Shown piece after piece: positions 38,154-60,994 of a stretch of 61,216 nucleotides of DNA; position 1 is the first letter of the stretch, and every line of letters begins with the position of its first letter. The notes below the pieces were generated by a model, which did not search any database, was not told the DNA's origin, and saw only the letters and a list, made by a program, of their open reading frames with translations. The position numbers and the translations under genes are program-made. The DNA lies in IMG/VR virus record IMGVR_UViG_3300045988_055475, positions 1 to 61,216 of that record. One strand, written 5' to 3'. This DNA is from a virus.

Positions 38154-40115
38154 CTAGTTGTCAAGGAAGGCAGGAAGATCGGCAAAGATCTTATCCATGT
38201 CTTCTTCCTTGATAGCTTTCATGCTACCATAATCATACCCTATCTCACAGTCTCCTGTCAAGGGTGCCACAATATCCCAACCAAAGTATTCTTTAGCAAG
38301 CTGAGGAAGGCTATGCATCAGCTTGATAGCTTCACGACATAACGTCTCTGCTTCTTCGATAGGAGCGTCAAATACCATAGAGTCGTGCACTTGAAGAATA
38401 AACTTGGCAAGAAGTTTATGCTCTTGTGTACGTGTAAGCAACTTCCACATAAGCAAGTACATAACGTCAGTAGACCCAGATTGTACTGGGTAGTTTGACA
38501 CCTGCTTTTCGTCAACAGTCTCTACACCATCGTAGCCCATCATGTTGTCAAACGTAAGGACACGTCCAGATGGATTACGTACATACCCTTGGGACTTGGC
38601 GAGCTGCACGTTTGTGTCTTGCCACTTCTTAAGTCCTTGGTACTTTTGATAGAAAGCTGCAACAATCTCTTTCCACTTCTTTAGACTGTAGTCAGGCATC
38701 CGTTGATCTCTATAGAACCCAGATGCTGAACCACCGTATAGAAGACGGAACGACATTGTCTTGGCAGTAGTGCGAAGTTTCTTAAACTCTTTTGAATCTC
38801 GTGGGTATTTGTCTGCACCGAAGAAACGTAGAGCATTATCAGCATGAATGTCCAAACCTTCGTTCAACTCACGAAGCATGACAGGGTCTCGACTTAACTC
38901 AGCAGCTATACGCCATTCAATCTGAGCTAGGTCAATATTTACGATAACTCCTTGTGTGCTTTTAAAGAATGTCTTGATGGGGCTGGTACCACCTCTGGGC
39001 AGATTTTGTCCGTTCGGATTGGAAGAAGAGAGTCTACCTGTACGAGTGACGCACTGGTTAAAGGAAGGATGAATCTTGTTATCTTTACCGACAACAGCAA
39101 TCAAACCTTTCTCTTCTTTGGAACCAGCAATTGTGGACACTACTTTGTTCAGTTTCTTCTGATCTCGTAGTGTTTGGAGGAAGGACTCAGAGCGTTCGTC
39201 GTTAGACTTTAATAGATCAAGAGTATTCTTATCGGTCAAAGGCAAGCCAGTCTTTTTGGATACGCAGCCTTCTGGAACTTTGAAGCCAAGTCCCTTGATA
39301 GGAATCTCAATCTTAGTCTTACGTGTGGTGATCTTAAACTTACCGCTCTTCAGCTGACGAGCTACAAGTTCAGGAACTTCTTTCTTTAAAGAACCACCAT
39401 ACAAAACAGCACTGAGCTGTGAAGAAGAGGAGGGAGTAAAGTTAATGCCAGCCAGATCGACAAGAGTCTTGTCCATTGCTTTAACCTGATCACGTACTTG
39501 ATCACAGTAAGCACTAGCTTCTTCTTTGTCGAAGGCTGCACCAGATACTTCTACATCAGAAAGAATCTGGGTTATACGGAAAGAAAGTTCCGCTATCTTG
39601 TCAAGTCCTGCACGCTCAATAAGCGGCAGCTGCTTCTTGAACACGGCGTGTGTAAGATGTATGTCCTGCTTGAGATAGTCTTCATGAATCTCCAACGGAA
39701 TCTCATCCGTCTCGTATCCAGCTTGCCAGTACATAGCCATGGCGTCGAGCTTGTGCCCTAAGTCATAGCGTTCTGCAACAGCATTGAGACTGTACTCAAG
39801 TCTACCCTGACCATTTATGAGATAGTCAGCTATCATCGTACACCAGACTGGCTTGTTCTTGACATTCAAACCAATCCACTTCAACCAGTTCAAGTCGAAC
39901 TTAATGTTGTGCCCAACCAATAGGTCAACTTTGTCAATCTCTTGTTGGATTTCAGCAATAAGTTCTTCATGTGGTCTATCATTCGGATTGAAGAACCACA
40001 CAGTTGAGGTACCGTCCTGACGTTCAATACCAACAGAGCACAAGAATGAACCTACTGTCCACGGCATGTGCTTCGGTGCTTTAGAACATTCTATGTCAAG
40101 TACCACGTAAGGCAT
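38154..40115 (-). CDS. Family-A DNA polymerase with N-terminal 3'-5' exonuclease domain (653 aa)
   Basis: Exo I 'VLDIECS', motif A-region 'RTGRLSSSNPNGQNLP', motif B 'RTTAKTMSFRLLYGGSA', motif C 'QVHDSMVFD'. Confidence 0.9.
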   Translation of the reverse strand: MPYVVLDIECSKAPKHMPWTVGSFLCSVGIERQDGTSTVWFFNPNDRPHEELIAEIQQEIDKVDLLVGHNIKFDLNWLKWIGLNVKNKPVWCTMIADYLINGQGRLEYSLNAVAERYDLGHKLDAMAMYWQAGYETDEIPLEIHEDYLKQDIHLTHAVFKKQLPLIERAGLDKIAELSFRITQILSDVEVSGAAFDKEEASAYCDQVRDQVKAMDKTLVDLAGINFTPSSSSQLSAVLYGGSLKKEVPELVARQLKSGKFKITTRKTKIEIPIKGLGFKVPEGCVSKKTGLPLTDKNTLDLLKSNDERSESFLQTLRDQKKLNKVVSTIAGSKEEKGLIAVVGKDNKIHPSFNQCVTRTGRLSSSNPNGQNLPRGGTSPIKTFFKSTQGVIVNIDLAQIEWRIAAELSRDPVMLRELNEGLDIHADNALRFFGADKYPRDSKEFKKLRTTAKTMSFRLLYGGSASGFYRDQRMPDYSLKKWKEIVAAFYQKYQGLKKWQDTNVQLAKSQGYVRNPSGRVLTFDNMMGYDGVETVDEKQVSNYPVQSGSTDVMYLLMWKLLTRTQEHKLLAKFILQVHDSMVFDAPIEEAETLCREAIKLMHSLPQLAKEYFGWDIVAPLTGDCEIGYDYGSMKAIKEEDMDKIFADLPAFLDN

Positions 40116-40331: not shown

Positions 40332-41711
40332 TTACTTCTGTTCCAAGTTAGGGTTCCCATATATCTCAGACAAGAGTGTCTTGAAGGTTGACTTGATCTC
40401 AGGTGAGCCAGAACCGTGGTGAGACTGGTCGTCGGACTTCGACACTTCAGAGAAGCTACCTGACGCCTTGTCAGTGTATAAGGCACATGAAGCATTGAAC
40501 ACTACTTCATACCTGCCATGTCTACCTTCATTCATCTTGTTCTTGCATAGAGATATATATCTAATACTGCAAACAGGATTGTCAACATCATCCAGTGATT
40601 TTCCTATCCCGATTGCATAGTCAAGCTCACCGGGCTTACCGGTCTTGCTGTTATCCATGTCAGATGTCTTCAGCCATTTAGCACCTTCTGCTGAAGCTGA
40701 CGCCTGACCAACAGCAATGACATCACAGTCGTATGCTTTAGCAAGTTCGCGAAACTTACCATATACAGCTTTAAGTCTTTCAACAGTTGACATATCTCTG
40801 TCACCAGAGAAACGAACCTTGTCACCTTGGTCTATAACTAAGAGGCGTACATTGTACGTCTTCATCAACTGTTCAATGTCTTCAACTGAGATGACAGCTT
40901 GATCATAGATTTTTATCTTGTGTCCGCCTAGTTTGGTGAACTCTTCTTCTGCATCAGCAGGATAGTTGACGAGATCAGCCTTACTGCACTTAAGCACTGA
41001 CTGATATATACGAAAGAGAACACGCTTGCCTTTCTCTTCGTTGTTACACCAGAGTATAACCTCATCATCCTTCAGCTGTGACGCGAAGTTAGAAACTTCT
41101 GATACAATAAACGATGTCTTACCTGTGTCGACTCTAGCAAATACGTGACCAAGGCTACCACCTCTTAGTTCTCCGATGCTTTCGTTCAGGCATGACAAGC
41201 GCCATTGTAATCCAGCTTCATGTACTTCTTCTTGTAAGAGTTCAGTCAAGTTAGACTTTACAAAAAGTTGGTCTTCATCTTTGTTAAGCTTTACTTTGCA
41301 TTCGTTGAACTCGGATAACATATCCTGTACTTCGTCAAGGACAGAGTATGAATCACCGTCAAGAACTTCAGTCAACTTAAACACCATCTCACTTGCAAAA
41401 TACTTTTCAAGGAAGTGGTTTAAGTTTTCTTCAAGGACTTTATTATCAATCTCAGTCGAACCTAAACGCTCAAGGTAAGCAGAATAAGATGTTCTCTTCT
41501 TCAGGATAGGGTGCTTCACTGAAAAGAAAACAAGTAATTCTTCAACACTAAGGACTTCCTTATCAGGATATTCAGAGAAATACTCCTTAATTGTTTTCAG
41601 AAAGTTCTTAGTTTCGAGTTCAAGGTTCAACTCAAAGATGAATTTAAAGTACTTGTCAAAGTTTTCTTTGCTTAACAAGAACAAAACAAGGGAGATTTCC
41701 TCAATGTTCAT
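40332..41711 (-). CDS. DnaB-like replicative helicase (459 aa)
   Basis: Walker A-like 'GSLGHVFARVDTGKTSF', RecA-fold C-terminal half; located next to the AT-rich origin-like region. Confidence 0.7.
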   Translation of the reverse strand: MNIEEISLVLFLLSKENFDKYFKFIFELNLELETKNFLKTIKEYFSEYPDKEVLSVEELLVFFSVKHPILKKRTSYSAYLERLGSTEIDNKVLEENLNHFLEKYFASEMVFKLTEVLDGDSYSVLDEVQDMLSEFNECKVKLNKDEDQLFVKSNLTELLQEEVHEAGLQWRLSCLNESIGELRGGSLGHVFARVDTGKTSFIVSEVSNFASQLKDDEVILWCNNEEKGKRVLFRIYQSVLKCSKADLVNYPADAEEEFTKLGGHKIKIYDQAVISVEDIEQLMKTYNVRLLVIDQGDKVRFSGDRDMSTVERLKAVYGKFRELAKAYDCDVIAVGQASASAEGAKWLKTSDMDNSKTGKPGELDYAIGIGKSLDDVDNPVCSIRYISLCKNKMNEGRHGRYEVVFNASCALYTDKASGSFSEVSKSDDQSHHGSGSPEIKSTFKTLLSEIYGNPNLEQK

Positions 41712-41739
41712 AGTGCCTTGCTTGTTCAGGAGTTAAGGT

Positions 41740-42040
41740 CAACCTACTAATTCAGAAGAAATATAGTCTTAATGTTCAAGGCATTAGTTACCTATAGTAC
41801 TTATGAATTAAGAGTTAGGTTTAGACTTAAGATATTATACCTAATTAAAGTACTTACGAAGTAGGTTATTTAAGATATTATACTTAAGTAAGGTTAATTA
41901 ACAGTTAAGTTAAACTTAATTATATTATAATACTTAATTAAATTAAGTCAAGTTAACTTATTAAGTAATATAATAAATAAACCTAAAGGTTAATCTATTA
42001 GGTTTACTTATTAAGTAACCTATAGTACTATATGTATAAG
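41740..42040. repeat. AT-rich iteron block between helicase and primase genes: candidate replication origin
   Basis: Direct repeats 'acttattaagtaa' (x2), 'taagatattatac' (x2), 'cctatagtact' (x2), 'aggtttaS' (x2) in a roughly 300-bp ORF-free, very AT-rich tract. Confidence 0.5.
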
Positions 42041-42079
42041 ATCAAATACCTGCCTGTCAAGTACCTGTCCGCACATTTG

Positions 42080-42367
42080 TTAGGCGGCTATGGCGTAATC
42101 GAACGACTTCATCCTGATGTTGTCAAGATAGCCGAGGCTCGAAGTGTTGTACGTGTGATACTTGCGAACAGTGGAACCACACTTAGGACAGGGCATGTCC
42201 TTGAGCTTGTCAGCGAAGAGAGTTTCACAGTCTTCACACACGACCAGTTGCATGTCGTAGAAGTTCGACAGCTGGTTACGTTTACGAGACAGGGTACGCT
42301 GCACTTCGTAACCGGAAGAGGAAGAAGACGGTACGAAAGAGACAGTCTTGTCGTTGAAGCTAAGCAT
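42080..42367 (-). CDS. Small Zn-ribbon protein (95 aa)
   Basis: 'CEDC...CPKC'; an alternative overlapping frame (42109..42372) was judged less likely. Confidence 0.4.
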   Translation of the reverse strand: MLSFNDKTVSFVPSSSSSGYEVQRTLSRKRNQLSNFYDMQLVVCEDCETLFADKLKDMPCPKCGSTVRKYHTYNTSSLGYLDNIRMKSFDYAIAA

Positions 42368-42557
42368 GACACACCTCCCTAGTCGCCTTACACAAAGTAC
42401 GCCAGATAGATCGGGCGTTGCTGATGATGTTGATCACGTTCCAGAACAACTTACGAATGATCTCGAAGATGCTCATGGTCTTCTTGCCAATGGTCACACC
42501 GATGGACACGTCCTTCCACGTAGGCCCATCGTAGGTTTTCTTTCCGAATCCGAACAT
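42360..42557 (-). CDS. Small hypothetical protein (65 aa)
   Basis: Operon context downstream of primase. Confidence 0.35.
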   Translation of the reverse strand: MFGFGKKTYDGPTWKDVSIGVTIGKKTMSIFEIIRKLFWNVINIISNARSIWRTLCKATREVCHA

Positions 42558-43396
42558 GTCGCACCTCCTATGAAGCGTTGGACTTCTTCGGGTTTATAAC
42601 ACTTAGGGTCTTGATGTGACAGTACAACTGGACTTGCACTATAACCAAGTGCACGCAATTGCTTTGCGTACTTACAAGCCTCTTGTCTTTTGTCTGGGTC
42701 AAGCCAGACCTTTATACACTCTATATCTGCGTCCGCCAGAACATCACGCAAAAGGTCCATCTTCACGTAGCTTCCGAGTAGAGCAACGGCACTCACACCA
42801 GCTCTAGCTACTGCGAGGCATGAAAGTATATCCTCGACGAGTACGACCTTCGATGTTTGGTTATTTACAAACAGAACGATATCTGACCTTTGTGATCTCA
42901 CGTTCATGTACTTAGGTCTGGATGTGTCTGAAGAAAGGTTGCGGCCCTGCCAAAAGACCAGCTCTCCATCCCGGAACACAGGAAGGATTAACCTATCTAG
43001 TCTGGGGCTGTACCCAATATGATAACGGCGTATCTCATCCTCATTGACGCCGTAGGTACGTAACCACAGCAAACCTGACGCGGGAATGTCAGCTGTAAAA
43101 TCTGACGGGAGAGTGACTTTCTTCGTTACGACACTGGCATTGTCTTTGTTGCCCACTGCTCTTCGATGCAATTCACTTAAGATCGCGCTAGATGATGGGC
43201 TTTTAACTGGGTACCAGTATTTAGTGTGGCACCTATGACACCACATACTGAACCCATTCCTTTTACGTGTCACAACAAAGCCATGACTGGTTACCTTGTC
43301 TGGTTCACAGAAAGGACAGTAGGCTTGTCTTACTGGCACGTCCATAGGTGCGTTGTAATCAAGGAACTTCTCAAGCTCCTCTCGCCTGACAGTCAT
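42494..43396 (-). CDS. DNA primase (N-terminal Zn-ribbon + TOPRIM, 300 aa)
   Basis: 'CPFCEPD...WCHRCH' zinc-binding motif and TOPRIM 'VVLVEDILSCLAVARAG' with downstream acidic 'D.D' patch. Confidence 0.78.
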   Translation of the reverse strand: MTVRREELEKFLDYNAPMDVPVRQAYCPFCEPDKVTSHGFVVTRKRNGFSMWCHRCHTKYWYPVKSPSSSAILSELHRRAVGNKDNASVVTKKVTLPSDFTADIPASGLLWLRTYGVNEDEIRRYHIGYSPRLDRLILPVFRDGELVFWQGRNLSSDTSRPKYMNVRSQRSDIVLFVNNQTSKVVLVEDILSCLAVARAGVSAVALLGSYVKMDLLRDVLADADIECIKVWLDPDKRQEACKYAKQLRALGYSASPVVLSHQDPKCYKPEEVQRFIGGATCSDSERKPTMGLRGRTCPSV

Positions 43397-48321: not shown

Positions 48322-48435
48322 TTCTTCTTGCCAAACAACTTAATCGCTTCGTTGGCATAATCAACAGTGGAGATGGTGCAGAGACCGACTACCCAGACGT
48401 AGAACATGAACCCGGCAATGCGGGTGATCATTTGT
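48322..48435 (-). CDS. Tiny hydrophobic protein (37 aa), unlisted
   Basis: ATGA overlap with upstream tiny ORF; single TM. Confidence 0.3.
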
Positions 48436-48553
48436 CACCTTCCTTGTTTCCGAATATCATGCTGTCCAACGACCGCACACCACCGTAGATGCACAGTCCG
48501 GCTACCCCGAAGTGCAGGAAACTCATACCCAAAATCTGGAGAGCTTTCCACAT
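48431..48553 (-). CDS. Tiny hydrophobic protein (40 aa), unlisted
   Basis: TAATG overlap with stop of the 187-aa gene; TM 'ILGMSFLHFGVAGLCIYGGV'. Confidence 0.35.
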
Positions 48554-49116
48554 TATTTCTTACCACCTTTACCCTGCTGCTGAGGTTTGGGCTGCTTGGT
48601 TTCCACCTTAAGAGCAGCGTCACTGGGAACCACATCAACAGCGGTGGGAGCAGGGGCCGGAGTGGGAGGAGTCATTTCCACCACACCGGCGTCAACAGTC
48701 ACAGGAGCAGGAACAGGCTGGCCGACCTGCATACCAAGGCGCTTGGCCACGGACTGGATGGCACGCTTAGCTTCTTCCGGATTGTTACCAGCCACGGTAT
48801 GCAAGTCCTGCATGATGTTGCCGGAGCCACCAACGGCAGGGCCGGTGGGGGTCACATTGAAGACAGGGCGAATCTTGCGACCAGTCCATTTACCAACAAC
48901 CCAGTCGAAGCCTTTCTGCACACCGGCGCAAGCCATCGCAGCGACAACGCCGCCAATGCAGGTGACCACAGCGTTCTGTACCTGCTGACCGATGGTGGTG
49001 GGCTGAGACGGAATGACCGAGGTGGCAATGGTGATGCCTTCTTTCGGGCCGTTCTGATTGCCACCTTTCTGCTTCTGCTGGTTCTGGTTGTTGTTGTTGT
49101 TCTGATCACCGCTCAT
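48553..49116 (-). CDS. Low-complexity Q/N/P-rich protein with hydrophobic core segment (187 aa)
   Basis: 'NNNNNQNQQKQKGGNQNG' N-terminus, 'PPTPAPAPT' and 'KQPKPQQQGKGGKK' C-terminus. Confidence 0.5.
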   Translation of the reverse strand: MSGDQNNNNNQNQQKQKGGNQNGPKEGITIATSVIPSQPTTIGQQVQNAVVTCIGGVVAAMACAGVQKGFDWVVGKWTGRKIRPVFNVTPTGPAVGGSGNIMQDLHTVAGNNPEEAKRAIQSVAKRLGMQVGQPVPAPVTVDAGVVEMTPPTPAPAPTAVDVVPSDAALKVETKQPKPQQQGKGGKK

Positions 49117-49517
49117 GTTGTAAACTCCTCTTCAGGTTTACGCTGGAGATGATAAAAGTGAGGACACCCGGGTAAGTCTCCAGTTATTTCATACCCGAGA
49201 TGTTGATAGAATCTGACAGCATCTGTGTTCGACTTGAGTGTACTCAAACTGAACCAGTGCTCAGGGTACTGCTGGTGCAAGGTGCGAAGTATCTGTCCTC
49301 CAATACCTACACCACGGTAGCGCACCCCAATCCAGTAGACGTAGACATATCTGACACGCTCGCCAGACTTGAACTCGTCAAAGATAGCAGCACCAACTGG
49401 GTAGCCATCGTCATCATACAGAGTGTAGGAGAGGTTGTCACGGTTTGACATGACATCCTCGATCCTATCATCGAAGACTTCACATAGGATGTCTAGGGCG
49501 TCTTGGTCAACACTCAC
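49113..49517 (-). CDS. GNAT-family N-acetyltransferase (134 aa)
   Basis: 'YVYVYWIGVRYRGVGIGGQIL' acetyl-CoA-binding motif A; ATGA overlap with downstream gene. Confidence 0.7.
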   Translation of the reverse strand: MSVDQDALDILCEVFDDRIEDVMSNRDNLSYTLYDDDGYPVGAAIFDEFKSGERVRYVYVYWIGVRYRGVGIGGQILRTLHQQYPEHWFSLSTLKSNTDAVRFYQHLGYEITGDLPGCPHFYHLQRKPEEEFTT

Positions 49518-49552
49518 AGCAACCTCTCCTAGTTAAAGGTTAAAGAAGAAAG

Positions 49553-49702
49553 CTAGTCCTTCTTGTCCTCCACCGGCTTGACATCAACAGTCTGGTCGGA
49601 AGCCGGGGCCGAGAACAGCGCCTGCTTGCCTTCCTTGAAAGCGAAGGAACCAGCGACGGCGGCGATGACGGCATACACAACGGGCTTCAGGAAACGGAAC
49701 AT
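49553..49702 (-). CDS. Small single-TM membrane protein (49 aa from refined start)
   Basis: RBS 'aaaggag' 7 nt before ATG 49702; TM 'PVVYAVIAAVAGSFAF'. Confidence 0.5.
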   Translation of the reverse strand: MFRFLKPVVYAVIAAVAGSFAFKEGKQALFSAPASDQTVDVKPVEDKKD

Positions 49703-49781
49703 AAGAATCTCCTTTGTTAAAGTGTGACAGGAAAGAGACAAGGACCATCCCTGCCTCTACACCTGTCACACTCCAGCCCTG

Positions 49782-50066
49782 TTACATGGTGAAGTCATAT
49801 GCCTTTCGTTGCAGGTTCTTGTCGAAGTTGGTTTCATCCACACGTTTGCACGTCCCTTGCTGATAACACATCAGCAGTTTGCCACAGTTGCTTTTCAAGA
49901 GACTGGTGCCAGACTTGGGGCAGGTGAGAAAGTTGCCTGCGTTCTTCAGCTTCCACTCTTCCACCTCTTCTTCGGTGAGCTGAGGTGACTTCTTCGGAAG
50001 GAATCGAGGGGGAGCATAAGGGTCTTTCTGAGACCAGTAGTCCAGCTTGTCATGATACGTAGCCAT
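49782..50066 (-). CDS. Hypothetical Cys-containing protein (94 aa)
   Basis: RBS 'aaggag'. Confidence 0.5.
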   Translation of the reverse strand: MATYHDKLDYWSQKDPYAPPRFLPKKSPQLTEEEVEEWKLKNAGNFLTCPKSGTSLLKSNCGKLLMCYQQGTCKRVDETNFDKNLQRKAYDFTM

Positions 50067-50149
50067 AAACTTTCTCCTTGTTATGTAAACGGACTGGGAT
50101 TAGCAGAGAGCAACCAACCCCAGTCCGAGTAGAGGTTAAAGACAAGAGG

Positions 50150-50557
50150 CTAGAATGCCGAGGTGAATAAGGCCTTGACTCTCTTTAGTCCAGTCAGAGG
50201 TTGTACCTTGTTCACATGCAGAGCATCCAGCAGCATCTCTCTTACGGGGGTTCTTCGCAGTGACCTAACAACGAGGTGTAAGACATACCATCTACTCCTA
50301 GTTGTAGCCATAGCGTCGATGAGGTCAGCCATCACCAAACTGGTTTCACATGTGAACACAAAGGTTCTCATGAGAATCCCCATCGAGTACAGCTTGTTAA
50401 GTTCCTCCGTCAACACGTGCCTGCAATGCTTGTACTCTCTATAACGTGCTCGGGTAAAAGCACACAGCCCCACGCCAACTACCAGTGCACCACCATGTAG
50501 ATAGACTTGTCGCACTACAGGGTTGGACACCATGAGTTCTCCTAGTATATCAAACAT
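50150..50557 (-). CDS. Hypothetical membrane-associated protein (135 aa from refined start)
   Basis: RBS 'aaaggag' 7 nt before ATG 50557; TM 'ALVVGVGLCAF'. Confidence 0.5.
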   Translation of the reverse strand: MFDILGELMVSNPVVRQVYLHGGALVVGVGLCAFTRARYREYKHCRHVLTEELNKLYSMGILMRTFVFTCETSLVMADLIDAMATTRSRWYVLHLVVRSLRRTPVREMLLDALHVNKVQPLTGLKRVKALFTSAF

Positions 50558-51003
50558 GACTGGCTCCTTTGTAGTCAGTAAGTTGATCTTATGAAGGACA
50601 TGATGCACATCGCTAGACTATCTTACCTGCCATATTCAGTAACAACTTCGCAGCATGGCTAGCCGGTACTCATGTTACTTGCGTCATCCACTAGCTTTGT
50701 GTTCGACCCAGACACAAGTTGTGTATCCGTAGTTTGCTTTTGATGTGCCGACATTGAGCACAGTATCAGCAGCCATCGAGGATTCTACACCTCACTCTGA
50801 TACACAAGTTTGCAAAGCGTTTACCTAACCAACAATTCATTAGCCACCCTAAGTCTACATGTTCGGTGGAGCGGACCTTGTGCGGAGGCTGCAACCTACC
50901 AGTTGCGTTGGCTCTCTTGTACACGACAGTGTCTGCCTTACTCCTTTCACTTGCAACCTAGTTCCAAACAAGGCCGAGTTGCCCCGGCCCTGCTTGTTAT
51001 GGG

Positions 51004-51504
51004 TTACATGGGATGGGAGTTAACGAGGGGCTTGATTTTATCCATCACATCCTTGGTCAGAATCTTGGACATGATGAACTCCTCAATGCCCGAGGCTTCA
51101 CGCAGAGCGTCGACAGAGGCAAGCGTTGCCGCATCGATGGCCGTCATGAAGTACTTGGCCTTCGGGTCGTCTTCGCCAACGTTCGAGACAAACGCACCGC
51201 CCATGATGGACAGAGCCTGTGCCAAGCTGAACTTGAACAGAGCTTCGTTCAGCGGATTGGATTTGATGAATCCGCCCATGCCCCAAGGCAGGCCGGATGC
51301 AATCACATCGGTCACGTTGTTCAGAACCAGACGACCAGCAGCGAGCTTGGTGATAACCACACCGGCTTCCTTGGTCTTGTCAATCTGACGGTGCATGGTG
51401 GGGGAACTGGTCACGCTTTTGGCAAGGCCGATAACCTTGGCACCGAAACCCATGGGCTCGTGCGCTTCTTCCACGTCGATGATGAACTCATTGTTTTTGT
51501 TCAT
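51004..51504 (-). CDS. Hypothetical protein (166 aa)
   Basis: Protein-like ORF in GC-rich island. Confidence 0.5.
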   Translation of the reverse strand: MNKNNEFIIDVEEAHEPMGFGAKVIGLAKSVTSSPTMHRQIDKTKEAGVVITKLAAGRLVLNNVTDVIASGLPWGMGGFIKSNPLNEALFKFSLAQALSIMGGAFVSNVGEDDPKAKYFMTAIDAATLASVDALREASGIEEFIMSKILTKDVMDKIKPLVNSHPM

Positions 51505-51534
51505 GTGTTACATACCTCCATGAGTTTCAGTGTG

Positions 51535-52584
51535 TTACTTGCTGGCCTTGGCGATCTCTTCGGAGATCTGCTTGCACTTGTTCTGCAGGGCGATGCTGCG
51601 CTTGCGCAGGTTCTGGATGCTATTACGCTTTTCTTCCAAAGCCTTCTCAGCACCGGACTTGATGATGGGGTCGTTGATCTTGGTGATGGTCTTTTCGCTG
51701 GCAGCGAGAGCCTTTTCACCTTCACGCAGTTCAGCTTCCACATTGGTCAGTTCATCGGTGGCTTCAGCCAGACGGCTCTCACGAACCTTGTTCATGCGGG
51801 CATCGTTCTTCCGCTTCTGAATGGCCTTGGTCACCACGTCACGGTGGAACTTGCAGAGGTAGCTGCCTTCCAGCTTGCGTTCATCATCGGTGATGTATTC
51901 CTGCGTGTCCTTGTCGGTGGGAAGATGGAAAGGCTTCTGCTCGGCCACCTTGCGAAGGACACTGCCGCAACCTTCAAAGGCGCAGCGAAGCACAGGCTTC
52001 TCGGTCTTACCAGCCTTGGCGTCCTTGTTGGGCAGGAGAAGAGGCGTAGCCACTTCAGGGCCGACCTTCACGGACACAGGTTCAGCTGTGGTTTCTTCCT
52101 TGACTTCGGCCTTGATGGGATTCTCGATGGCGTTGGCGGTGACACCAGCGGGCTTGGCTTGCGTGGAGAACCGGGGCTTGGTTTCCTTGGTGCCGTCATC
52201 CTTGGGCAGAACACCGAGCATCTGGAGGAAAGGCTTGGAGTCGAAGGTCTTGGAAACCACAGCCTGCATGTCAGCGGTCGCGCTGTCTTCCGCCGTGCCG
52301 CGCATCTGGAACACACCCGCCTCGTCACACACACGCAGGAGTTCATCGGCAGCGTCCATCGTCATGCCGAGTCCGAGGTAGTGAAGGGCTTTGCCGTGGG
52401 CGGTGTCCGGGTCAGCGAGGGAAGCAGCGGTCAGCACAGCGGAGGACGTAAGCACACCCTGAAGCACGGTGGGATTGGCAAAGAGGGCTTCCTTCGCAGC
52501 CTTACCAGCGATACGGGCGGTCACGAGCTTGCCAGCTTCAGCGTTGGAGTCGAGGACGATCTTGAAGATGTTGCGCATGGACAT
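51535..52584 (-). CDS. Hypothetical protein with central C/C/C/H zinc-binding-like site and C-terminal coiled coil (349 aa)
   Basis: 'CAFEGCGSVL...CKFH'; E/K-rich heptad-like C-terminus. Confidence 0.55.
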   Translation of the reverse strand: MSMRNIFKIVLDSNAEAGKLVTARIAGKAAKEALFANPTVLQGVLTSSAVLTAASLADPDTAHGKALHYLGLGMTMDAADELLRVCDEAGVFQMRGTAEDSATADMQAVVSKTFDSKPFLQMLGVLPKDDGTKETKPRFSTQAKPAGVTANAIENPIKAEVKEETTAEPVSVKVGPEVATPLLLPNKDAKAGKTEKPVLRCAFEGCGSVLRKVAEQKPFHLPTDKDTQEYITDDERKLEGSYLCKFHRDVVTKAIQKRKNDARMNKVRESRLAEATDELTNVEAELREGEKALAASEKTITKINDPIIKSGAEKALEEKRNSIQNLRKRSIALQNKCKQISEEIAKASK

Positions 52585-52650
52585 AGTAAGTACTCCTAAT
52601 GGTTTGATGGTTGCTGTTCGTTGTCTGTTTATATGGTACAGTAACAGATG

Positions 52651-53088
52651 TTACTTGCCCCGCTTGGAAGGTTCAGTGCCTATGATGTAGGCAATGGCAT
52701 CGGCCTCAGCTTTACCGATGTCAAGAACAGAGAAGCCGACAGACCTCACCGGAATGTCGTCATCAGGTTGCGACAGTTCCATTCCCATGCCGGGATATTT
52801 ATGGGCAAGATACTTGTCCTTACCCCGGCGCTGACGTTCACGTGCAATAGCAGCGGCCTGCGATCTGGTCTTACCACACACAGGACATTTGCACGTGGGA
52901 CACAGGCGTTCATACTTGTCACCAACAGGCACGAGTTCCAGCCTGCGCTTGACGCGTTCAATGATGCGGGCCTGCGGGCTATCATGACCATAGAACTCAA
53001 CCAGTTCCTCAAAGAACTTGACAACCTCATGGTCAAGCGTAGCAGAACCAACTGGTGTTCCCATAGAATATATCTCCTTGTTGTTCAT
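52651..53088 (-). CDS. Hypothetical Zn-ribbon protein (145 aa; may start at second Met, 53064)
   Basis: 'CPTCKCPVCGK'; a strong RBS 'aaggag' precedes the internal ATG. Confidence 0.5.
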   Translation of the reverse strand: MNNKEIYSMGTPVGSATLDHEVVKFFEELVEFYGHDSPQARIIERVKRRLELVPVGDKYERLCPTCKCPVCGKTRSQAAAIARERQRRGKDKYLAHKYPGMGMELSQPDDDIPVRSVGFSVLDIGKAEADAIAYIIGTEPSKRGK

Positions 53089-53243
53089 TGGTTTCTCTGT
53101 AGATGTTAAGCCAGTCCTCTACGAGTTCTACTGCCTGCGGTCTGTCGGACTCATCACAGAGTCCAAACCTAAGCATGTAGTCAAAGATAGCTTGATAGTC
53201 TACCTCCATGTTGTAGTCCTTGTTTATATGACACCTGAATTAT

Positions 53244-53522
53244 TCAGGTTCTGTCGTGTTGGATGAGGGCTTTGATGTGAGCCAGACTGATGTCAGGACA
53301 AACAAAGGTGTAAAAGATTGCTGCGGGATTCGCTGCAATGAGACACTTAAGCGCACGCTCAACAGCAATTGCCCTGTTGTGACACCGTTTCGTGCGCATG
53401 GGGTCGATGTTCATCATGCATCTTTTGCCGTCCTGTTCTACGTAACGATAGCAAGACTCAATGTCTTGTGTGAACAAGAGCCACAAGGCCCTAAGCTCAC
53501 TGAATTCGAAAAGAGAAAGCAT
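53244..53522 (-). CDS. Hypothetical protein, paralogue A of a duplicated pair (92 aa)
   Basis: Aligns along its length with the 54110 gene (EF.ELR.LWL...R.......DG........R..R...R.IAV.RALKCLIA..PAA.FY.FVCP). Confidence 0.55.
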   Translation of the reverse strand: MLSLFEFSELRALWLLFTQDIESCYRYVEQDGKRCMMNIDPMRTKRCHNRAIAVERALKCLIAANPAAIFYTFVCPDISLAHIKALIQHDRT

Positions 53523-53742
53523 CTCTTACCTCCTTACGCACACGCAGGATATCCTGCCATGTTATGTTTAGGTGTTTATCAATGATGCGAGAGCAGCAAA
53601 TTATCATGTCATCCAAAGATGCAATCGACTTGGCATACACTCGCTCGTCCATGTGCTGTCTTTTCTGTCGAAGGTCTTCCTTGATGTCCTGTACTTCACG
53701 TAAAAGGTTGAAGGCTTGACATGCCTGTTCTGATGGGTACAT
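53497..53742 (-). CDS. Small hypothetical protein (81 aa)
   Basis: Operon context. Confidence 0.4.
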   Translation of the reverse strand: MYPSEQACQAFNLLREVQDIKEDLRQKRQHMDERVYAKSIASLDDMIICCSRIIDKHLNITWQDILRVRKEVRDAFSFRIQ

Positions 53743-53747
53743 CGTAC

Positions 53748-54074
53748 TTACTCCTTGTTGGAGAAGTACTCCAAGCAGTCTTCCATCACACCGATGGCAG
53801 GAGTAACCTTCCTCAAGAAAGGATGCTTTTCAAACACGGCCAGATGTTCAAGGGACTCATCCCGATATGCCCGGAGCAGAGCGAGAGCCCGCATAAGAAT
53901 GTCAATGTCGCTGACCACAGCAGCATTGCCACTGACATCGTCATCGGCCTTGTCTTTGTCAGTGATAAAGGAGATGACGTTGATGTAGTCTTCCAACTTT
54001 TCCGGGGAGATTTTGGTCACGTTTGCAGCGAGTGCAAGCATCGTCTTGAGGATGAGAGTTTCGTCAGCAGTCAT
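53748..54074 (-). CDS. Hypothetical acidic protein (108 aa)
   Basis: Operon context. Confidence 0.45.
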   Translation of the reverse strand: MTADETLILKTMLALAANVTKISPEKLEDYINVISFITDKDKADDDVSGNAAVVSDIDILMRALALLRAYRDESLEHLAVFEKHPFLRKVTPAIGVMEDCLEYFSNKE

Positions 54075-54109
54075 GTATTATATCTCCTTATGTATGACGC
54101 CTGATTTAT

Positions 54110-54391
54110 TTAGGCATTGTCATGTCGAGTAAGGGCATCACTGTAGTGAAGGCAGACAGTAGGACACACAAAAGCGTAGAAGACTGCAGCAGGATATTTT
54201 GCAATGAGGCACTTGAGTGCACGATCAACTGCAACTATCCTTTTGTAGTATCGCTTCATGCGCTCGCTGTCGATACCAGTAGGCACCATTTTGCCATCCT
54301 TCTTTACGTAGGTATGGCAACGTTTGAGTTCAAGGCTGTACTTCAACCACAGATGTCTGAGCTCACCGAATTCTTCCAGCGTAAACATCAT
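54110..54391 (-). CDS. Hypothetical protein, paralogue B of the duplicated pair (93 aa)
   Basis: See 53244 gene. Confidence 0.55.
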   Translation of the reverse strand: MMFTLEEFGELRHLWLKYSLELKRCHTYVKKDGKMVPTGIDSERMKRYYKRIVAVDRALKCLIAKYPAAVFYAFVCPTVCLHYSDALTRHDNA

Positions 54392-54397
54392 ACCCCC

Positions 54398-54739
54398 TTA
54401 GTTGAGAGTGTTCCGGTCAATGCATTCCTTCATCACATCCATGTGCTTGAGAAGGTCAGCAAGAATCCACGCAAAACGGTACGCGTCTGCCGCTTCAAGG
54501 CCATAGCCATCCTTCATGATTGCGTACATTTCAGTGTCCATGAAGTGGCCCTTGTCAAGCAGCATCTTGGCTCTGACCATCAGTGCCACGGGAACATATT
54601 GGTATTCTTGAAAGAGTCTTCCTTCGGGATCATGGAAGTTCCTAACAGTTTCCGCAAGACCCAGAGACGGCATGACAGAAAGCAATACCGTACCACAAAG
54701 AACGCCAGCGAAAACAGACTTCTTAAAATGCTTAAACAT
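54398..54739 (-). CDS. Secreted/periplasmic protein with N-terminal signal peptide (113 aa)
   Basis: 'MFKHFKKSVFAGVLCGTVLLSVMPSLGLA-ET' signal peptide with A-x-A-like cleavage. Confidence 0.55.
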   Translation of the reverse strand: MFKHFKKSVFAGVLCGTVLLSVMPSLGLAETVRNFHDPEGRLFQEYQYVPVALMVRAKMLLDKGHFMDTEMYAIMKDGYGLEAADAYRFAWILADLLKHMDVMKECIDRNTLN

Positions 54740-54909
54740 ACAGACCTACCTTTGATGTATGGATGTTGTGACATAGCATTACTTAGTTGAATGATGTAAT
54801 CATAGCAGCAGCTATAGTTATGTGCATACCAGTCCTTATAAAAGAACTTCCTTGCACGCTGTGCCATGCAGTCCGTAGCCAACTTGCTAACCATATGGTC
54901 AAGCATCGT

Positions 54910-55086
54910 TTACAGTCCTATCGCATGGAAGATGCTAGGATTGGACATGTATGTGGTCAGCTCTGTGGATACCATGTTCATAAGGGACTCTCCCCACGAC
55001 TGATTGCCTGCGCATCCGCTCAACAGAAGTACACACAAGCAGATAAAGAAGAACATCCAGAACATTTGATTAGTGTACCATCTCAT
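54910..55086 (-). CDS. Small lipoprotein with lipobox (58 aa), unlisted
   Basis: 'MFFFICLCVLLLSGC' has a hydrophobic core then L-S-G-C lipobox; ATGA overlap with the upstream TM ORF. Confidence 0.45.
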   Translation of the reverse strand: MRWYTNQMFWMFFFICLCVLLLSGCAGNQSWGESLMNMVSTELTTYMSNPSIFHAIGL

Positions 55087-55235
55087 GACTGTCTCCCCCA
55101 GTTTCGCACGAGGAACAGACCCTGTGCATAGTAAGAACGAAAGGCATTCCGTCTATCCAAGTGCCTGCGGAACAGGTACATGGAACAACAGCCGAGGCCA
55201 AACGACGATACCATAATGACGAGTACTTCAAACAT
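55083..55235 (-). CDS. Small TM protein (50 aa from internal ATG of listed 87-aa ORF)
   Basis: TM 'FEVLVIMVSSFGLGCCSMYLF'; ATG overlaps upstream stop (ATGTTTGA). Confidence 0.35.
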   Translation of the reverse strand: MFEVLVIMVSSFGLGCCSMYLFRRHLDRRNAFRSYYAQGLFLVRNWGRQS

Positions 55236-55539
55236 CACGACCTTCCCATATAAGCGTGCGCATTCTGTTCTTTCCCTTGGGAATCTTGACTCGCACTTTA
55301 AGTTTAAGTATCCAGACATTATCCTTCTTAAAGTAGAACTTGACACTAGTCGGATGAATATCTGGCCTGTTGATTTGTTCTCGTGCCCATTTGACTATGT
55401 CCTTTTTAAAGTAGAACGTCTTGAAGGCACACAATTCCCCTATATAGCGGCCTGTCTTTTTATACAGGCGACTACCATAAACGGCTACCCTATAATTAGC
55501 GTTAATCATAGGCATATCTCCTGTGGTTAGGTGTAACAA
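55228..55539 (-). CDS. Hypothetical basic protein (103 aa)
   Basis: Clean ORF. Confidence 0.5.
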   Translation of the reverse strand: MLHLTTGDMPMINANYRVAVYGSRLYKKTGRYIGELCAFKTFYFKKDIVKWAREQINRPDIHPTSVKFYFKKDNVWILKLKVRVKIPKGKNRMRTLIWEGRDV

Positions 55540-55587
55540 ACATCAATTGAAACAAGCTGATGCACAGCCTGTTTCTCAAATGTTTGT

Positions 55588-55782
55588 TTAGAAAAGTCTG
55601 TATATGATACAGGTGTTGATTTGTTCCATGAGTTCAATCAGTCGTTGAGTTTTCCAGTCTGTATAAACAGCTGGTGACAACAGAAAGGACTCTGACAGGT
55701 TATCGGCAAGGCGAAGATAACGCCTAGATAGAAACAGCCTTATGTCAGGCATGATTGAGCTCCCTTGTTGTACATAGGACAC
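55588..55782 (-). CDS. Small hypothetical protein (64 aa)
   Basis: Immediately downstream of terminator; weak. Confidence 0.3.
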   Translation of the reverse strand: MSYVQQGSSIMPDIRLFLSRRYLRLADNLSESFLLSPAVYTDWKTQRLIELMEQINTCIIYRLF

Positions 55783-55818
55783 AAAAAAGCTCCGATAAGT
55801 CCTAGCCTACCGGAGCTT
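55782..55818 (-). terminator. Rho-independent terminator after the 298-aa gene
   Basis: 7-bp stem 'agctccg'/'cggagct' with U6 tail on the minus strand (A6 on plus). Confidence 0.6.
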
Positions 55819-55842
55819 TAATGTGCTGTGAATGCGAGAGGT

Positions 55843-56739
55843 TTAAAGCTCAATGCCGTGGACAACGGCACTCTTGAGCACTTCTTCATAGAACAGTTCC
55901 TGTTCAGGGGTAAGGTTAGACCTATCACAGTTCGACATGAGCTTAATCAGGGACGCGAAGGGAAGGCTTTCCCCCTTGAGCAGACGCACCTTAGCAAGTA
56001 CATCGTCGCTCATGTCGTTTTCGTCCGCATTCTCCAGCATCTGAATGTAGTATTCCAGACCATGCGGAGTTTCGATACCGGGGAACTTGCGCACATCGTG
56101 CACACCGGACGCCTTCGCCTGCTCAATCAGCTTGTTCAGCTTATTGGTGATGCTGGTGTACTTCGCCATGACTTCTTCTTCAGTCAAAGGCTTGTCACCA
56201 CGGCCAGCGGTCTTATCCTTCTTCCACGTATCGAAACGCGGAGCCGAGCGAAGGGAGCCAATAACGTAGTCGCACAAGCGCATCATGCCCGCCGGGTCAT
56301 TGACATTTCCGCCCTTGTCCCGGGCCAGCTTATCAATCTCGGCAGCGTCGCACAACTCGTCGCAACGCTTAGCGACCAGCTTGATGGACGACTTGAGGTC
56401 GACGATCGTCCCATCGTCCAGCGTGATGGTACTGGCATCCTTTCCACCGGACAAGGCGAAGGGCGCGAAGTAAAACAGCCAAGAAGTCCACGCCGGGCGG
56501 AGCTTTTCCGACAGGTTGCCGAGAATGTAGTTCAGCGGCTGGTTGTTGCTGTTCATCATGGCAGCGCGTACAGCGTACAGCGTGCAACGAGTGACACCGT
56601 TAACGAATTCCTTTTGGGAATGCACAAAGACGTTGACTTGAGCGCGGAAGTCTGCCTCTGTCCAGTCCGTAATCTTGGCGGGAGCAGTAGCAATTTCAGC
56701 AGTAACGGGAGCAATAGGCGTAGCAATAGCGGCGTTCAT
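55843..56739 (-). CDS. Hypothetical protein (298 aa), GC-rich
   Basis: Clean ORF with RBS 'gagg'; preceded by an operator-like repeat region. Confidence 0.6.
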   Translation of the reverse strand: MNAAIATPIAPVTAEIATAPAKITDWTEADFRAQVNVFVHSQKEFVNGVTRCTLYAVRAAMMNSNNQPLNYILGNLSEKLRPAWTSWLFYFAPFALSGGKDASTITLDDGTIVDLKSSIKLVAKRCDELCDAAEIDKLARDKGGNVNDPAGMMRLCDYVIGSLRSAPRFDTWKKDKTAGRGDKPLTEEEVMAKYTSITNKLNKLIEQAKASGVHDVRKFPGIETPHGLEYYIQMLENADENDMSDDVLAKVRLLKGESLPFASLIKLMSNCDRSNLTPEQELFYEEVLKSAVVHGIEL

Positions 56740-57065
56740 AGTAATACCTCATATTTTTAAAGGTTTATAGTCGTGTGGAATCCATTGCCTTATTGCAAAA
56801 GCCTAGTTGTCTAGGCTCTTGTATATAAATCAACGGTTATACCCAACTATCACCAGTCCATACAGAGGCACGAATATATTGACAGGTGCTTGTGTTCTTA
56901 TACAAGAGCCGACAGGCAAGACGCACCTTATACGCCTCTTGTATCCGTTGCTTTTCCCACAGGTTTACAGGAATAGAACTAGGCATATGTTTGTGTAACA
57001 TATGGGCAATAAGCCGTTGTGATATGAAAACTTGAGGTGGTACAATGTAGTACATAGTGTTCTCC

Positions 57066-57641
57066 TTAACGAAAGCGACGGGACGAACGAGTGCTTGCCA
57101 TGTCAAAATCGTCTTCCGTATGCACGACGACCTTAGCATGACGACTAACACGACGCCGAACCTTTTGAGGCTTATCCAGAGTCACGATGGCGCAAGAGTA
57201 TCCATCTTGCTTGTCCATAACTTCACCAGTGCCCACGTTAGTAGTACGATACTTAGCGCGTGGGCGTTCGCTTGTACGTACCTTACGGATGTTGATATGC
57301 TTGCCATGCTTGCCAGTTACGGACTTGTTTTGTCCGTATTCGGCATACAGGAAAGGCACATCTGCCAGACCGGGGAGAACAGGGAAGAATACCTTCCGTT
57401 CTGCTGGTGTTAAGTCAGAATAACGCTTGATAGTACCAGCAAAATCAGACCATAGAAGTGTCTTAGTGTCCAGAAACTGGCCATGCTGGTTTCTATAGCC
57501 TACACATTCCCCGCGCTTGTTCCAAACCGGACTATAACGCAGGTCTTCCTTTTCCGTCTGGTAAAGGTTATTCATGCCCTGATTCCTACAGATATTCAGA
57601 GCATTAGCCTGCCTCTTATAACCTTGTGGTTTATCGTGCAT
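57066..57641 (-). CDS. Hypothetical basic protein (191 aa), possibly DNA-binding
   Basis: RBS 'aggag' 9 nt before ATG; Arg/Lys-rich; first gene downstream of the long ORF-free region. Confidence 0.55.
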   Translation of the reverse strand: MHDKPQGYKRQANALNICRNQGMNNLYQTEKEDLRYSPVWNKRGECVGYRNQHGQFLDTKTLLWSDFAGTIKRYSDLTPAERKVFFPVLPGLADVPFLYAEYGQNKSVTGKHGKHINIRKVRTSERPRAKYRTTNVGTGEVMDKQDGYSCAIVTLDKPQKVRRRVSRHAKVVVHTEDDFDMASTRSSRRFR

Positions 57642-58450
57642 AAGTCAACTCCTGATTTAAACAACTTGACTGGTTGCAAGGGTATAACGCACCCAAGGCA
57701 CCCCATTCCCCTGCAACTGTCAAACTGTTTACAGACGGAACACCTTTATCTATTATTTATAGCCGTTGTACTGTCTCCAACGCAGGATGGAACGCATCCT
57801 TTTAACGCCAATACTCTACGGCTGTAACTTTTCTAAGGTTACTTTCAGTCTACCCTTTGAGCCGACTTATCACGTTGCTAGGTTGTAAATCTGCAACATC
57901 GTTTACGGTTTATCGGTAGACTATAGGCTTGCTGTAAGTAGGACTTGCCCCTAACCTACCTTGCACAGTGCACAAGGTCGCCAGTTAGCTTGTTCCGTCC
58001 TCTTGCTTATACGTCGCACCTAGGGATAATAGGAGTATATAAGCAAGCCCCGGCTTTTCTGTACGTCCCTACCTGCTAAACTACTACTTACACAAGCAAC
58101 GCATCTAAGACACTTTGCTAAGAGTGTAAGCCTACTATAGTTAGCTTTACGGCAGAACACGCATAACCTGCAAGCTCCATGCATAGCTCACCTTTCGGCT
58201 TGCCATAGCTGCGCCTTGTACTTGTGTGCAGCTAGTGCAGGAAGATACCATAAGCTGATACCTTTCGAAGTGCATCCGCACTTCTCGACTTCATCCGAAG
58301 TCTCTCAAGTTCTTTAACCGACTCCGCAAGCAAACGTTTTCATGCTGCTATGTTCTCGTTCCCACGACGACCTTGTGGCGGTCGTGGTACTATCCTTTGC
58401 AAGCTCCGCTTGCTAAAGGCGACCTCTATTGGAGTAGGTTTTCCCTCTTT

Positions 58451-58500
58451 CGTTGAAAGTGTTCTCTCATAAGTCATTGCGCTTGTCAAGTACTTTTGCC
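58451..58500. repeat. Repeat element copy A ('cgttgaaa'-N23-'cttgtcaagtactttt')
   Basis: Shares both end motifs and their spacing (31 vs 32 nt) with copy B at 58679-58727. Confidence 0.45.
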
Positions 58501-58559
58501 TTTCTTGTATGTGTCGTCGTTGCTCATTTTTCCGGCTGGCAACTACTCTTTAGAACGCC

Positions 58560-58607
58560 TTAACGTTCGCAAGCAAAGAACAGCTAAACGCTGTTTAACG
58601 TTCGCCT
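58560..58607. repeat. Two perfect 11-bp direct repeats 'ttaacgttcgc' flanking a 6-bp-stem hairpin 'aacagc-taaac-gctgtt'
   Basis: Exact repeats at 58560-58570 and 58597-58607; each contains palindrome AACGTT. Confidence 0.5.
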
Positions 58608-58678
58608 ATTTCTGGTTTCCAGACACAAAGGCAAGTACTCAACAAAGACGCTATTCGCTTTTGAAAGAACACATTCAT

Positions 58679-58727
58679 CGTTGAAATGGACTCTACGCGG
58701 CTTATGTGGCCTTGTCAAGCACTTTTT
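58679..58727. repeat. Repeat element copy B ('cgttgaaa'-N24-'cttgtcaagcactttt')
   Basis: See copy A. Confidence 0.45.
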
Positions 58728-59496
58728 CAACACTTTCTAAAAGAACGTATCGTGTGGGATGTACCCTTCCGATGCCTCTTATATAGCAAGCCTTGTGCCA
58801 AAACGTAAGTAGTTGAAATTATTGACTATTGGTTATCCTATAAGTTCAACTTTTTGTACCTGCTAGGTGCGCCGGCAGGTGCTTGTGGAGCTTATGGAGC
58901 CATGCTGTGCATAGTTCTATAAGTACTACAGGTACTTAGATCATGGTTCAAATATTGGTACGTTTGGCACGCATGAATACAATAAGTTGAACTTATGTGT
59001 AAACATGTGTAATTATTCAACCTTTTGACCATGCTAACCATAAGTAGTTGTTTTAGTTAGCTTTTGGTTACGTTTGGATACTATTAGTTGCTGTTGATAA
59101 CCATTAGCAGCTATTTAGTGCTATTGATTACCATTGCTGGCAGGTTTGGGGTCTTTAATCCTACCCACAAGCTAGGTTATAGGTTACCAACACTGCTAGG
59201 AGTAACACTTCAAACCTTAGGAGTCACACTGTACTTTCTTTCACAAGGGGGAGGGGGTCAAACCCTACCCGTGGGACACAGCGGAGGCACGGGGGTACAG
59301 ATGACACAGACTTCGCTCGCAACTTTTTGGGAGCTGAATGACTTCATCAGAATCATTTCTATATACGTATAGTACTCATAGTTCAGAACAAGTCTAGGAG
59401 TCATGCGTACATACCTCCAGCTATATTCCAGCATACGTAACCAACAGTAGTCAGGAGTAGTCACTAGCTACCGGCCCGGGCCCTACCTCTTGGCTC

Positions 59497-59569: not shown

Positions 59570-59583
59570 ATTCATATGAATAT
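59568..59583. promoter_or_regulatory. Perfect 16-bp palindrome ATATTCATATGAATAT overlapping the -10/+1 of the 59542 promoter (operator candidate)
   Basis: Sequence equals its reverse complement. Confidence 0.55.
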
Positions 59584-60987: not shown

Positions 60988-60994
60988 CATAAAT

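Follow-up and report, generated by a model that had tools for sequence, protein, structure and literature searches.

We analysed a stretch of viral DNA of 61,216 nucleotides (positions 1 to 61,216 of IMG/VR record IMGVR_UViG_3300045988_055475), referred to here as the window, and within it a 368-bp non-coding gap, the tract, which precedes the gene of a DnaB-like replicative helicase. That the tract is a functional non-coding element is firm, and it is a reasonable, if unproven, candidate for a replication origin of the phage. All genes flanking the tract are on the minus strand, and its features are given below in the order of that strand. The genes and the gap are the following.

42494-43396, minus strand: DnaG/T7-type primase, one gene further upstream of the tract than the zinc-ribbon open reading frame (ORF)
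42080-42367, minus strand: zinc-ribbon ORF of 95 amino acids (aa), the upstream neighbour of the tract
41712-42079, minus strand: the whole non-coding gap, from the zinc-ribbon stop codon to the helicase ATG, G+C content (GC) 0.26
40332-41711, minus strand: DnaB-like replicative helicase, the first gene downstream of the tract, with its ATG at 41709-41711
38154-40115: family-A DNA polymerase (PolA), downstream of the helicase after a 70-aa ORF

The preliminary description had placed the tract between the helicase and primase genes. The position is right, except that the zinc-ribbon gene intervenes before the primase.

The same description had called the tract ORF-free and far richer in A+T than its surroundings, and both statements hold. 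No ORF of at least 50 aa is found over 41712-42031, and inside the tract there are only ORFs of 30-32 aa. A 116-aa plus-strand ORF that runs over the right edge of the tract is antisense to the zinc-ribbon gene and non-coding by score. The GC of the tract is 0.264, that of its central 200 bp 0.19 and that of the window 0.464. The tract is the lowest-GC 368-bp stretch of the window, and the runner-up has a GC of 0.33. The following segment stands out by its duplex stability.

41875-41974: the least stable 100 bp of the window, -98 kcal/mol, a candidate DNA unwinding element

Compared with a window mean of -136.5 kcal/mol (sd 6.9), this value is 5.6 standard deviations off. The tract is thus firmly the easiest place of the genome at which to open the duplex. 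No tRNA gene lies in the tract, and no Rfam family matched it at the gathering threshold, the only hit being a chance snoRNA match (E = 0.5).

Two sigma70-like promoters, P1 and P2, point from the tract toward the helicase; like the other sigma70-like sites discussed here, they are consensus matches only. Together with the neighbouring elements they are arranged as follows.

42033-42060, minus strand: promoter P1, TTGACA-16-TATACA, about 20 nt past the zinc-ribbon stop and directed toward the helicase
42019-42034: candidate operator O1, the 16-bp palindrome CCTATAGTACTATAGG, overlapping the -10 hexamer and start region of P1
42018-42028 and 41790-41800, minus strand: copies of GTACTATAGGT bracketing the repeat tract
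42006-42018 and 41956-41968: dyad TTACTTAATAAGT, two copies flanking the hairpin
41978-42006, minus strand: hairpin inverted repeat TAAACCTAA / TTAGGTTTA, followed by a T-rich run
41924-41951, minus strand: promoter P2, TTGACT-16-TATAAT, scoring 11/12, the best of the region
41920-41944, 41870-41894 and 41827-41851, minus strand: three direct repeats of about 25 bp, with spacings of 50 and 43 bp
41846-41867, minus strand: the most conserved inner block, 22 bp, AACCTACTTCGTAAGTACTTTA, with the dyad TACTT-N3-AAGTA inside
41709-41735, minus strand: conserved end of the leader, TGAACAAGCAAGG, with a Shine-Dalgarno-like AAGG at 41716-41719

P1 is one of several CTTGACA-N16-TAT..T sites that also precede other minus-strand genes; its -10 hexamer is TATACA in the window and TATACC in most relatives. 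The palindrome CCTATAGTACTATAGG, imperfect by one mismatch in the window, is without mismatch in close relatives, in which it forms with P1 a promoter with an overlapping palindrome, as is expected of a control region. The score of P2 is equalled or beaten at only four sites of the window, P2 included. A 16-nt inverted repeat (arms 41923-41938 and 41960-41975), whose single-strand DNA fold has z = -2.8, encloses the -35 box of P2. No intrinsic terminator was found past the zinc-ribbon gene. Promoter-like sites aimed at the helicase-polymerase operon are a firm feature of the tract, and the tract is certainly at least a promoter and leader region as far as such predicted sites define one. The remaining minus-strand sigma70-like sites between 27 and 46 kb are found inside ORFs or in spacers of no more than about 100 nt, in DNA of ordinary GC, so that a promoter role alone is insufficient to account for 368 bp at a GC of 0.26. 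Downstream of P1 and P2 the GC is 0.19-0.29, and the global stability minimum lies there.

The four pairs of repeats that had been named in the preliminary description are all present, at these positions.

41956-41968 and 42006-42018: ACTTATTAAGTAA pair
41828-41840 and 41871-41883: TAAGATATTATAC pair
41791-41801 and 42019-42029: CCTATAGTACT pair
41817 and 42000: AGGTTTA(G/C) pair

Repetition in the tract is far above that of its dinucleotide-preserving shuffles. Twelve repeated 10-mers were observed against 0.75 in the shuffles, none of 1000 of which reached 12, and six repeated 12-mers against 0.08; the longer repeated words occur nowhere else in the window. Inverted repeats showed no clear enrichment over the shuffles. 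The autocorrelation of the tract is highest at a lag of 50 (z = 4.4) and has lesser maxima at 43 and 73, which gives a loose periodicity of about 50 bp; the three direct repeats of about 25 bp, each with AAGTAT(T)ATAATAT, are part of it. The program TRF reported no tandem array in the tract of the window, and arrays only in relatives. What unites the tract is the word CTTAA/TTAAG, the halves of the palindrome CTTAAG. It is matched 14 times at 12 distinct sites, where shuffles give 1.8 +/- 1.4, and it is found at 38 per kb in the tract as compared with 2.2 per kb in the remaining genome. No other such cluster exists in the window: here 300 bp hold 12 sites, elsewhere at most 4. The DNA of the tract is made up of degenerate copies of a CTTAAG-type palindromic word together with a few longer duplications.

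Close relatives of the phage, which come from human-gut metagenomes, have helicases 96-99% identical to that of the window, and 13 further distinct versions of the gap were compared. Among close relatives the layout is kept, and the differences are substitutions, a 50-bp tandem duplication (L007, located at 5600-6000) and a 10-bp deletion (L016, at 5214-5614). The ACTTATTAAGTAA and TAAGATATTATAC pairs are found in the window's own version alone, even against a tract 98% identical to it, and the double CCTATAGTACT is present in groups A and B of the relatives and lost in group C. Group B has three differences in the 22-bp block AACCTACTTCGTAAGTACTTTA. Group C, whose helicase is about 90% identical, retains P1, the palindrome arms, the leader and the 22-bp block, the last in duplicate; its CCTATAGTACTATAGG arms carry a 1-nt insertion at the centre. 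P2 is lost in this group, and a new promoter, TTGACA-16-TATATT, stands near the helicase. Conservation of the gap is 0.90 in group B and 0.74 in group C, compared with 0.84 and 0.60 at 4-fold degenerate sites of the helicase gene. Because it is more conserved than these sites, the gap is under constraint.

At least seven related contigs end in the homologous gap (L008, L012, L013, L045, L047, L067 and L068), full-length contigs of 61-63 kb among them, and L026/L012 has an 84-bp terminal overlap within it. The gap looks like a hotspot of assembly breaks, which internal repeats and indels between strains would cause. A genome terminus or packaging site, for example a terminal repeat, would also place contig ends here and give a full-length contig such a terminal overlap, and we consider it very improbable. 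The break points are scattered (172, 175, 208, 237, 248 and about 313 nt upstream of the helicase), the gap is internal in the window and in most full-length contigs, it lies in the middle of a block of same-direction genes, and internal repeats with strain heterogeneity are a simpler cause of the breaks. The scatter and the full-length contigs that span the gap led us to reject the terminus.

The same contig breaks, the 50-bp duplication and 10-bp deletion among strains and the poor conservation of the exact repeats are what one would expect of a mostly neutral, slippage-prone A+T-rich minisatellite at a module junction, with the promoter as its only functional part. This explanation is unlikely in view of the conservation of the gap above that of synonymous sites, and of the composition and word content, which persist at 45-76% helicase identity despite turnover of the sequence.

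A protein search brought up many phage contigs of about 57-63 kb with helicases 37-76% identical to that of the window, and eight of these wider contexts, L069 to L076, were compared; a second scan of viral contigs with a helicase profile gave no new loci. A gap before the helicase is kept in seven of the eight and absent in L076, in which the helicase is 37% identical. The seven gaps are listed here with the identity of the helicase.

L069: helicase 76%, gap 400 bp, GC 0.28
L070: helicase 69%, gap 546 bp, GC 0.33
L071: helicase 63%, gap 194 bp, GC 0.17
L072: helicase 60%, gap 241 bp, GC 0.48
L073: helicase 52%, gap 168 bp, GC 0.29
L074: helicase 47%, gap 117 bp, GC 0.28
L075: helicase 45%, gap 239 bp, GC 0.31

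The GC of the gap is 0.17-0.33 in six of the seven, L072 being the exception, compared with 0.35-0.46 for the whole loci. When promoters were compared over 11 lineages, a sigma70-like promoter at the opening of the gap, directed toward the helicase and DNA polymerase, was found in seven. The position of P1 is occupied in L002, group C, L069 (a 12/12 match) and L070; L071 and L075 have a similar promoter near the start of the gap, and L073 and L074 have a short A+T-rich gap without a scorable promoter.

The words within the gap are also found in relatives, often in a more regular form. CTTAA/TTAAG is enriched in five lineages, L070 and L075 among them. In L069 an 11-bp lattice holds 11 copies of CTTAAG (spectral power 12; the 95th percentile of the null is 6.0). 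TRF finds units of 10-12 bp in it, and the bracket TATACTACCTAT of this lineage is analogous to the GTACTATAGGT bracket of the window. L071 has a 25-bp tandem unit with ACTTAAGTAT inside. L015 (68-69% identical) uses a different palindrome, in 12-bp TTGGCCAA (TGGCCAA) units: TGGCCAAAGGAT is repeated 5.7 times with an exact 12-bp period and is flanked by two CCTTGACA boxes. Judged by these contexts, the tract of the window is a degenerate member of a conserved class, in which a promoter and then an A+T-rich array of short palindromes stand ahead of the helicase. The phased palindromic arrays of the relatives point to an additional sequence-specific protein that binds double-stranded DNA, which may be an initiator or a repressor.

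Three further observations were made on genes of these relatives. A sigma70-family protein is encoded downstream of PolA in L076 (6841-7236). The helicase homologues P0003 and P0035 (785 and 759 aa) contain an intein or homing-endonuclease insertion (Hom_end, LAGLIDADG). The PolA gene is in two or three ORFs in some relatives (L070, L071).

Like T4 oriF and the T7 primary origin, the tract may be an origin activated by transcription. We favour the reading, at a probability of roughly 0.4, that it is the cis-acting head of the helicase-polymerase operon and doubles as an origin of this type. Transcription by host RNA polymerase from P1 and P2 would open the tract, through an R-loop or by transient melting. 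The opened tract would provide a single-stranded entry point and a primer for the T7-like helicase, primase and PolA, the helicase would load on the displaced strand, and the first fork would move leftward, co-directionally with the transcription of the helicase, the polymerase and the genes after them. A sequence-specific protein that gates the promoter and the origin would have its sites in the palindromic words and dyads, the 16-bp palindrome over the start of P1 among them. Besides the minimum of GC and stability, the excess of direct repeats, the single word cluster, the orientation of P1 and P2 and the conservation of the gap above 4-fold sites, the following points count for this reading: the replication module is T7-like, and no phage RNA polymerase gene was identified; the gap, its promoter and its A+T-richness recur in L069, L070, L071 and L075, at helicase identities of 45-76%; and tandem arrays stand at the same place in the relatives L069, L071 and L015.

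The minimal oriF and oriG of T4 consist of a promoter and a downstream A+T-rich unwinding element, at which an R-loop primes synthesis (PMC3016281). The T4 origins oriF(uvsY) and oriG(34) sit amid genes for replication and recombination and work without a dedicated initiator (PMC3016281); the tract likewise lies within such a module, and no initiator gene was recognised among its neighbours. The consensus promoters of the tract lead into an A+T-rich unwinding element directly downstream, the arrangement expected of an origin of the T4 or T7 type. The T4 origins differ in that they use MotA-dependent middle promoters and have no array of palindromic words, whereas the promoters here are plain sigma70-like ones and the tract is about 370 bp long.

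In T7 the primary origin, which Fuller and Richardson are said to have described in 1985, has the tandem promoters phi1.1A and phi1.1B, followed by an A+T-rich segment and a primase site. The tract is similar in that tandem promoters are followed by A+T-rich DNA within a block of genes of one direction, and the phage has a replication and recombination module with gp4-, gp5-, gp6- and gp3-like members. In contrast, T7 has its own RNA polymerase, and none was identified in the scanned ORFs of the phage; the T7 origin lies upstream of gene 1.1, and primase and helicase are fused in T7. A promoter of the T7 class was also considered for the tract and rejected. The T7-like core word ACTATAGG is exact only in the tract, no phage RNA polymerase was found, and in place of a promoter of about 23 bp repeated throughout the genome there is GTACTATAGGT, which occurs exactly twice, both times in the gap.

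A purely transcriptional role, with the origin elsewhere, is nearly as likely as an origin combined with a promoter. The tract would then hold the promoters of the helicase-polymerase operon and an operator array through which a phage regulator times or autoregulates the replication genes. That the 16-bp palindrome, the TACTT-N3-AAGTA dyads and the CTTAAG words together form such an array, in the manner of ParR-parC or omega-type arrays, is a serious though still doubtful proposal. Within the gap nothing is conserved better than the promoters, which turn over without disappearing, the loss of P2 in group C being offset by TTGACA-16-TATATT. The perfect palindrome lies over the -10 hexamer and start of P1 in relatives, the 12-bp array of L015 lies between two CCTTGACA boxes, and words of palindromic shape hint at a DNA-binding protein that is a dimer. 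Another origin candidate exists at 60.9-61.0 kb, which also suits this explanation. It is less well served by the A+T content and length of the tract, which are above those of every other promoter region of the genome, and by the single word cluster, which would imply a regulon of one site; nor was a cognate regulator recognisable by Pfam or PHROGs.

ParR-parC of plasmid R1 and the omega heptads of pSM19035 are arrays of short phased repeats around promoters. The relatives L069 and L015 resemble them in having arrays with a period of about 10-12 bp around or between promoters. On the other side, the A+T content of the tract is far higher, the phage appears to be lytic, and genes for ParA, ParM or a ribbon-helix-helix protein were not detected.

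Transcription from P1 and P2, if these are active, would run through the tract downstream of them, and the tract could then also act as RNA. An A+U-rich structured 5' leader, or a small RNA from P1 or P2, would govern how well the helicase message is translated or how stable it is, and its CUUAAG words would pair with one another or bind an RNA-binding protein. The RNA fold of the tract has z = -3.8 against shuffles, a signal that is a trivial consequence of palindromic words. The 11- and 12-bp lattices of the relatives suit the helical repeat of DNA and not an RNA structure, the tract is heavily remodelled among close relatives with no evident compensatory pattern, and Rfam has no match. An RNA-level role is accordingly quite improbable.

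The tract had been described as a cluster of iterons. Origins of this kind (lambda ori; plasmids P1, F and those of the pSC101 type) also carry repeated words beside or within A+T-rich DNA, and the arrays of the relatives are spaced by 11-12 bp. The segment 41875-41974 is an A+T-rich unwinding region adjoining repeats, as is usual at iteron origins. However, iterons are 17-22 bp long, well conserved within a replicon and accompanied by an adjacent Rep or O gene, whereas the words of the window are of 5-6 bp, degenerate and unphased, with no recognisable initiator gene. In place of at least three phased, same-orientation direct repeats of about 17-22 bp there are only pairs and one triplet of about 25 bp with 76-88% identity, and the repeats are not conserved among close relatives. 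The repeats are thus real, and relatives do hold tandem arrays; what does not carry over is the name of iterons, as the pairs are poorly conserved, phasing is lacking in the window and neither an initiator gene nor a DnaA box was found.

Several results weigh against an origin in the tract. No gene of the Rep or O-like initiator type was found among the neighbours of the tract by Pfam or PHROGs, no helix-turn-helix (HTH) or initiator domain in 30 further ORFs scanned, and no DnaA box (TTWTNCACA) in 41000-42800. The CTTAA/TTAAG sites have no significant short-range period or helical phasing in the window. As for the conservation in relatives by which the preliminary description proposed to judge its repeats, the position of the gap is conserved clade-wide, but two of the pairs are peculiar to the window and all four are gone in group C. 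The gaps of L072 and L015 are not A+T-rich, and in most of the more distant T7-like relatives examined (28-34% identical) the primase abuts the helicase without a gap. At 4-fold sites the coding strand has a GC skew of -0.12 left of the gap and of -0.07 right of it, with no clear switch, and the global cumulative GC skew tracks gene orientation. The minimum of the cumulative skew is at 60.9-61.0 kb, where the gene arms diverge. This site is an alternative origin candidate in an equally classical position. It is (as 60900-61100) the second most A+T-rich and second least stable site of the window, and it has divergent sigma70-like promoters, at 60939 on the plus strand and at 61024 and 61088 on the minus strand.

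By its position, and by that alone, the zinc-ribbon protein is a candidate binder of the tract. It diverges far faster than the helicase or primase: its identity to the window copy is 78%, 35% and 27% where that of the helicase is 97%, 90% and 69%. Nearly all homologues have CxxC...CPxC and a C-terminal Y-A-(I/M/L)-A-A, which reads YAIAA in the window, YAMAA or YALAA in homologues and TYALAA in the L015 type. YALAA is also the final five residues of the E. coli ssrA degradation tag, which is recognised by ClpXP. The ssrA-like tail suggests that the zinc-ribbon protein may be short-lived; the degradation tag is the topic of PMC7652416. In L071 CTTAAG-type arrays are present, yet the small protein upstream of the gap has no cysteines, and for this reason the zinc ribbon is not clearly tied to the word. 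The protein was rejected as a known DNA binder, as Pfam and PHROGs gave nothing significant and a PDB profile search only generic zinc ribbons; its AF2 model (pLDDT 58) was too poor for a fold search. A bolder proposal is that the gap is the replication origin of a large clade of uncultured gut phages of about 60 kb, with a phased array of short palindromes (mostly CTTAAG, degenerate here, and TTGGCCAA in one lineage) that would be read by an upstream, fast-evolving zinc-ribbon initiator with an ssrA-like YA(L/M/I)AA tail, whose proteolysis by ClpXP would time the firing. We regard it as a long shot.

A defined control or origin region would serve as an anchor for reading the replication state from metagenomic coverage and, once a host is found, as a handle for shuttle or reporter constructs. 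Should the tract prove to be a promoter and operator region and no more, it would be an ordinary element. Its main appeal lies in the phased palindrome arrays that stand, across the clade, at the same conserved position: an 11-bp lattice, 25-bp units, 12-bp TTGGCCAA units and a degenerate tract form a natural series for the evolution of DNA-word specificity.

The window as a whole is a circular assembly of 61,161 bp, because its ends overlap exactly by 55 bp (bases 1-55 are identical to 61162-61216). These ends are cut within a gene-dense region. A megablast search of the phage collection gave no DNA-level match to the window, and among cultured phages the top protein matches, in the Methylophilales phages MEP401 and MEP402, reach an identity of about 32-35%. 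On these comparisons the phage is a member of a widespread, apparently uncultured human-gut group of about 60 kb without a close cultured relative. Its gene set is podovirus-like, with terminase, portal, major head protein and internal virion protein. The T7-like replication and recombination module comprises primase, helicase, PolA, exonuclease, endonuclease I, ligase and ThyX; a scan of ORFs with Pfam and PHROGs gave no domain of a phage RNA polymerase.

Codon-usage scoring and one acetyltransferase match show the minus strand to be coding from about 57.6 kb down to 26.9 kb, and also, further up, for the ORF at 60010-60900, and the genome is therefore two-armed. The arms diverge at about 60.9-61.0 kb and converge at about 26.85 kb. 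Long ORFs lie on both strands in 48400-57650, where the real set is that of the minus strand by codon usage and by the acetyltransferase match (49113-49517, minus). About 2.2 kb at 57828-60009 have no ORF of at least 50 aa, an ordinary GC of 0.39-0.49 and no Rfam or tRNA match; CTTGACA promoter-like sites are found there on the minus strand at 58490 and 58719, and the region may encode a non-coding RNA. The block of virion genes ends with a 2327-aa ORF (19400-26383, plus), which matches only PHROGs of unknown function with profile lengths of 2800-3900 aa.

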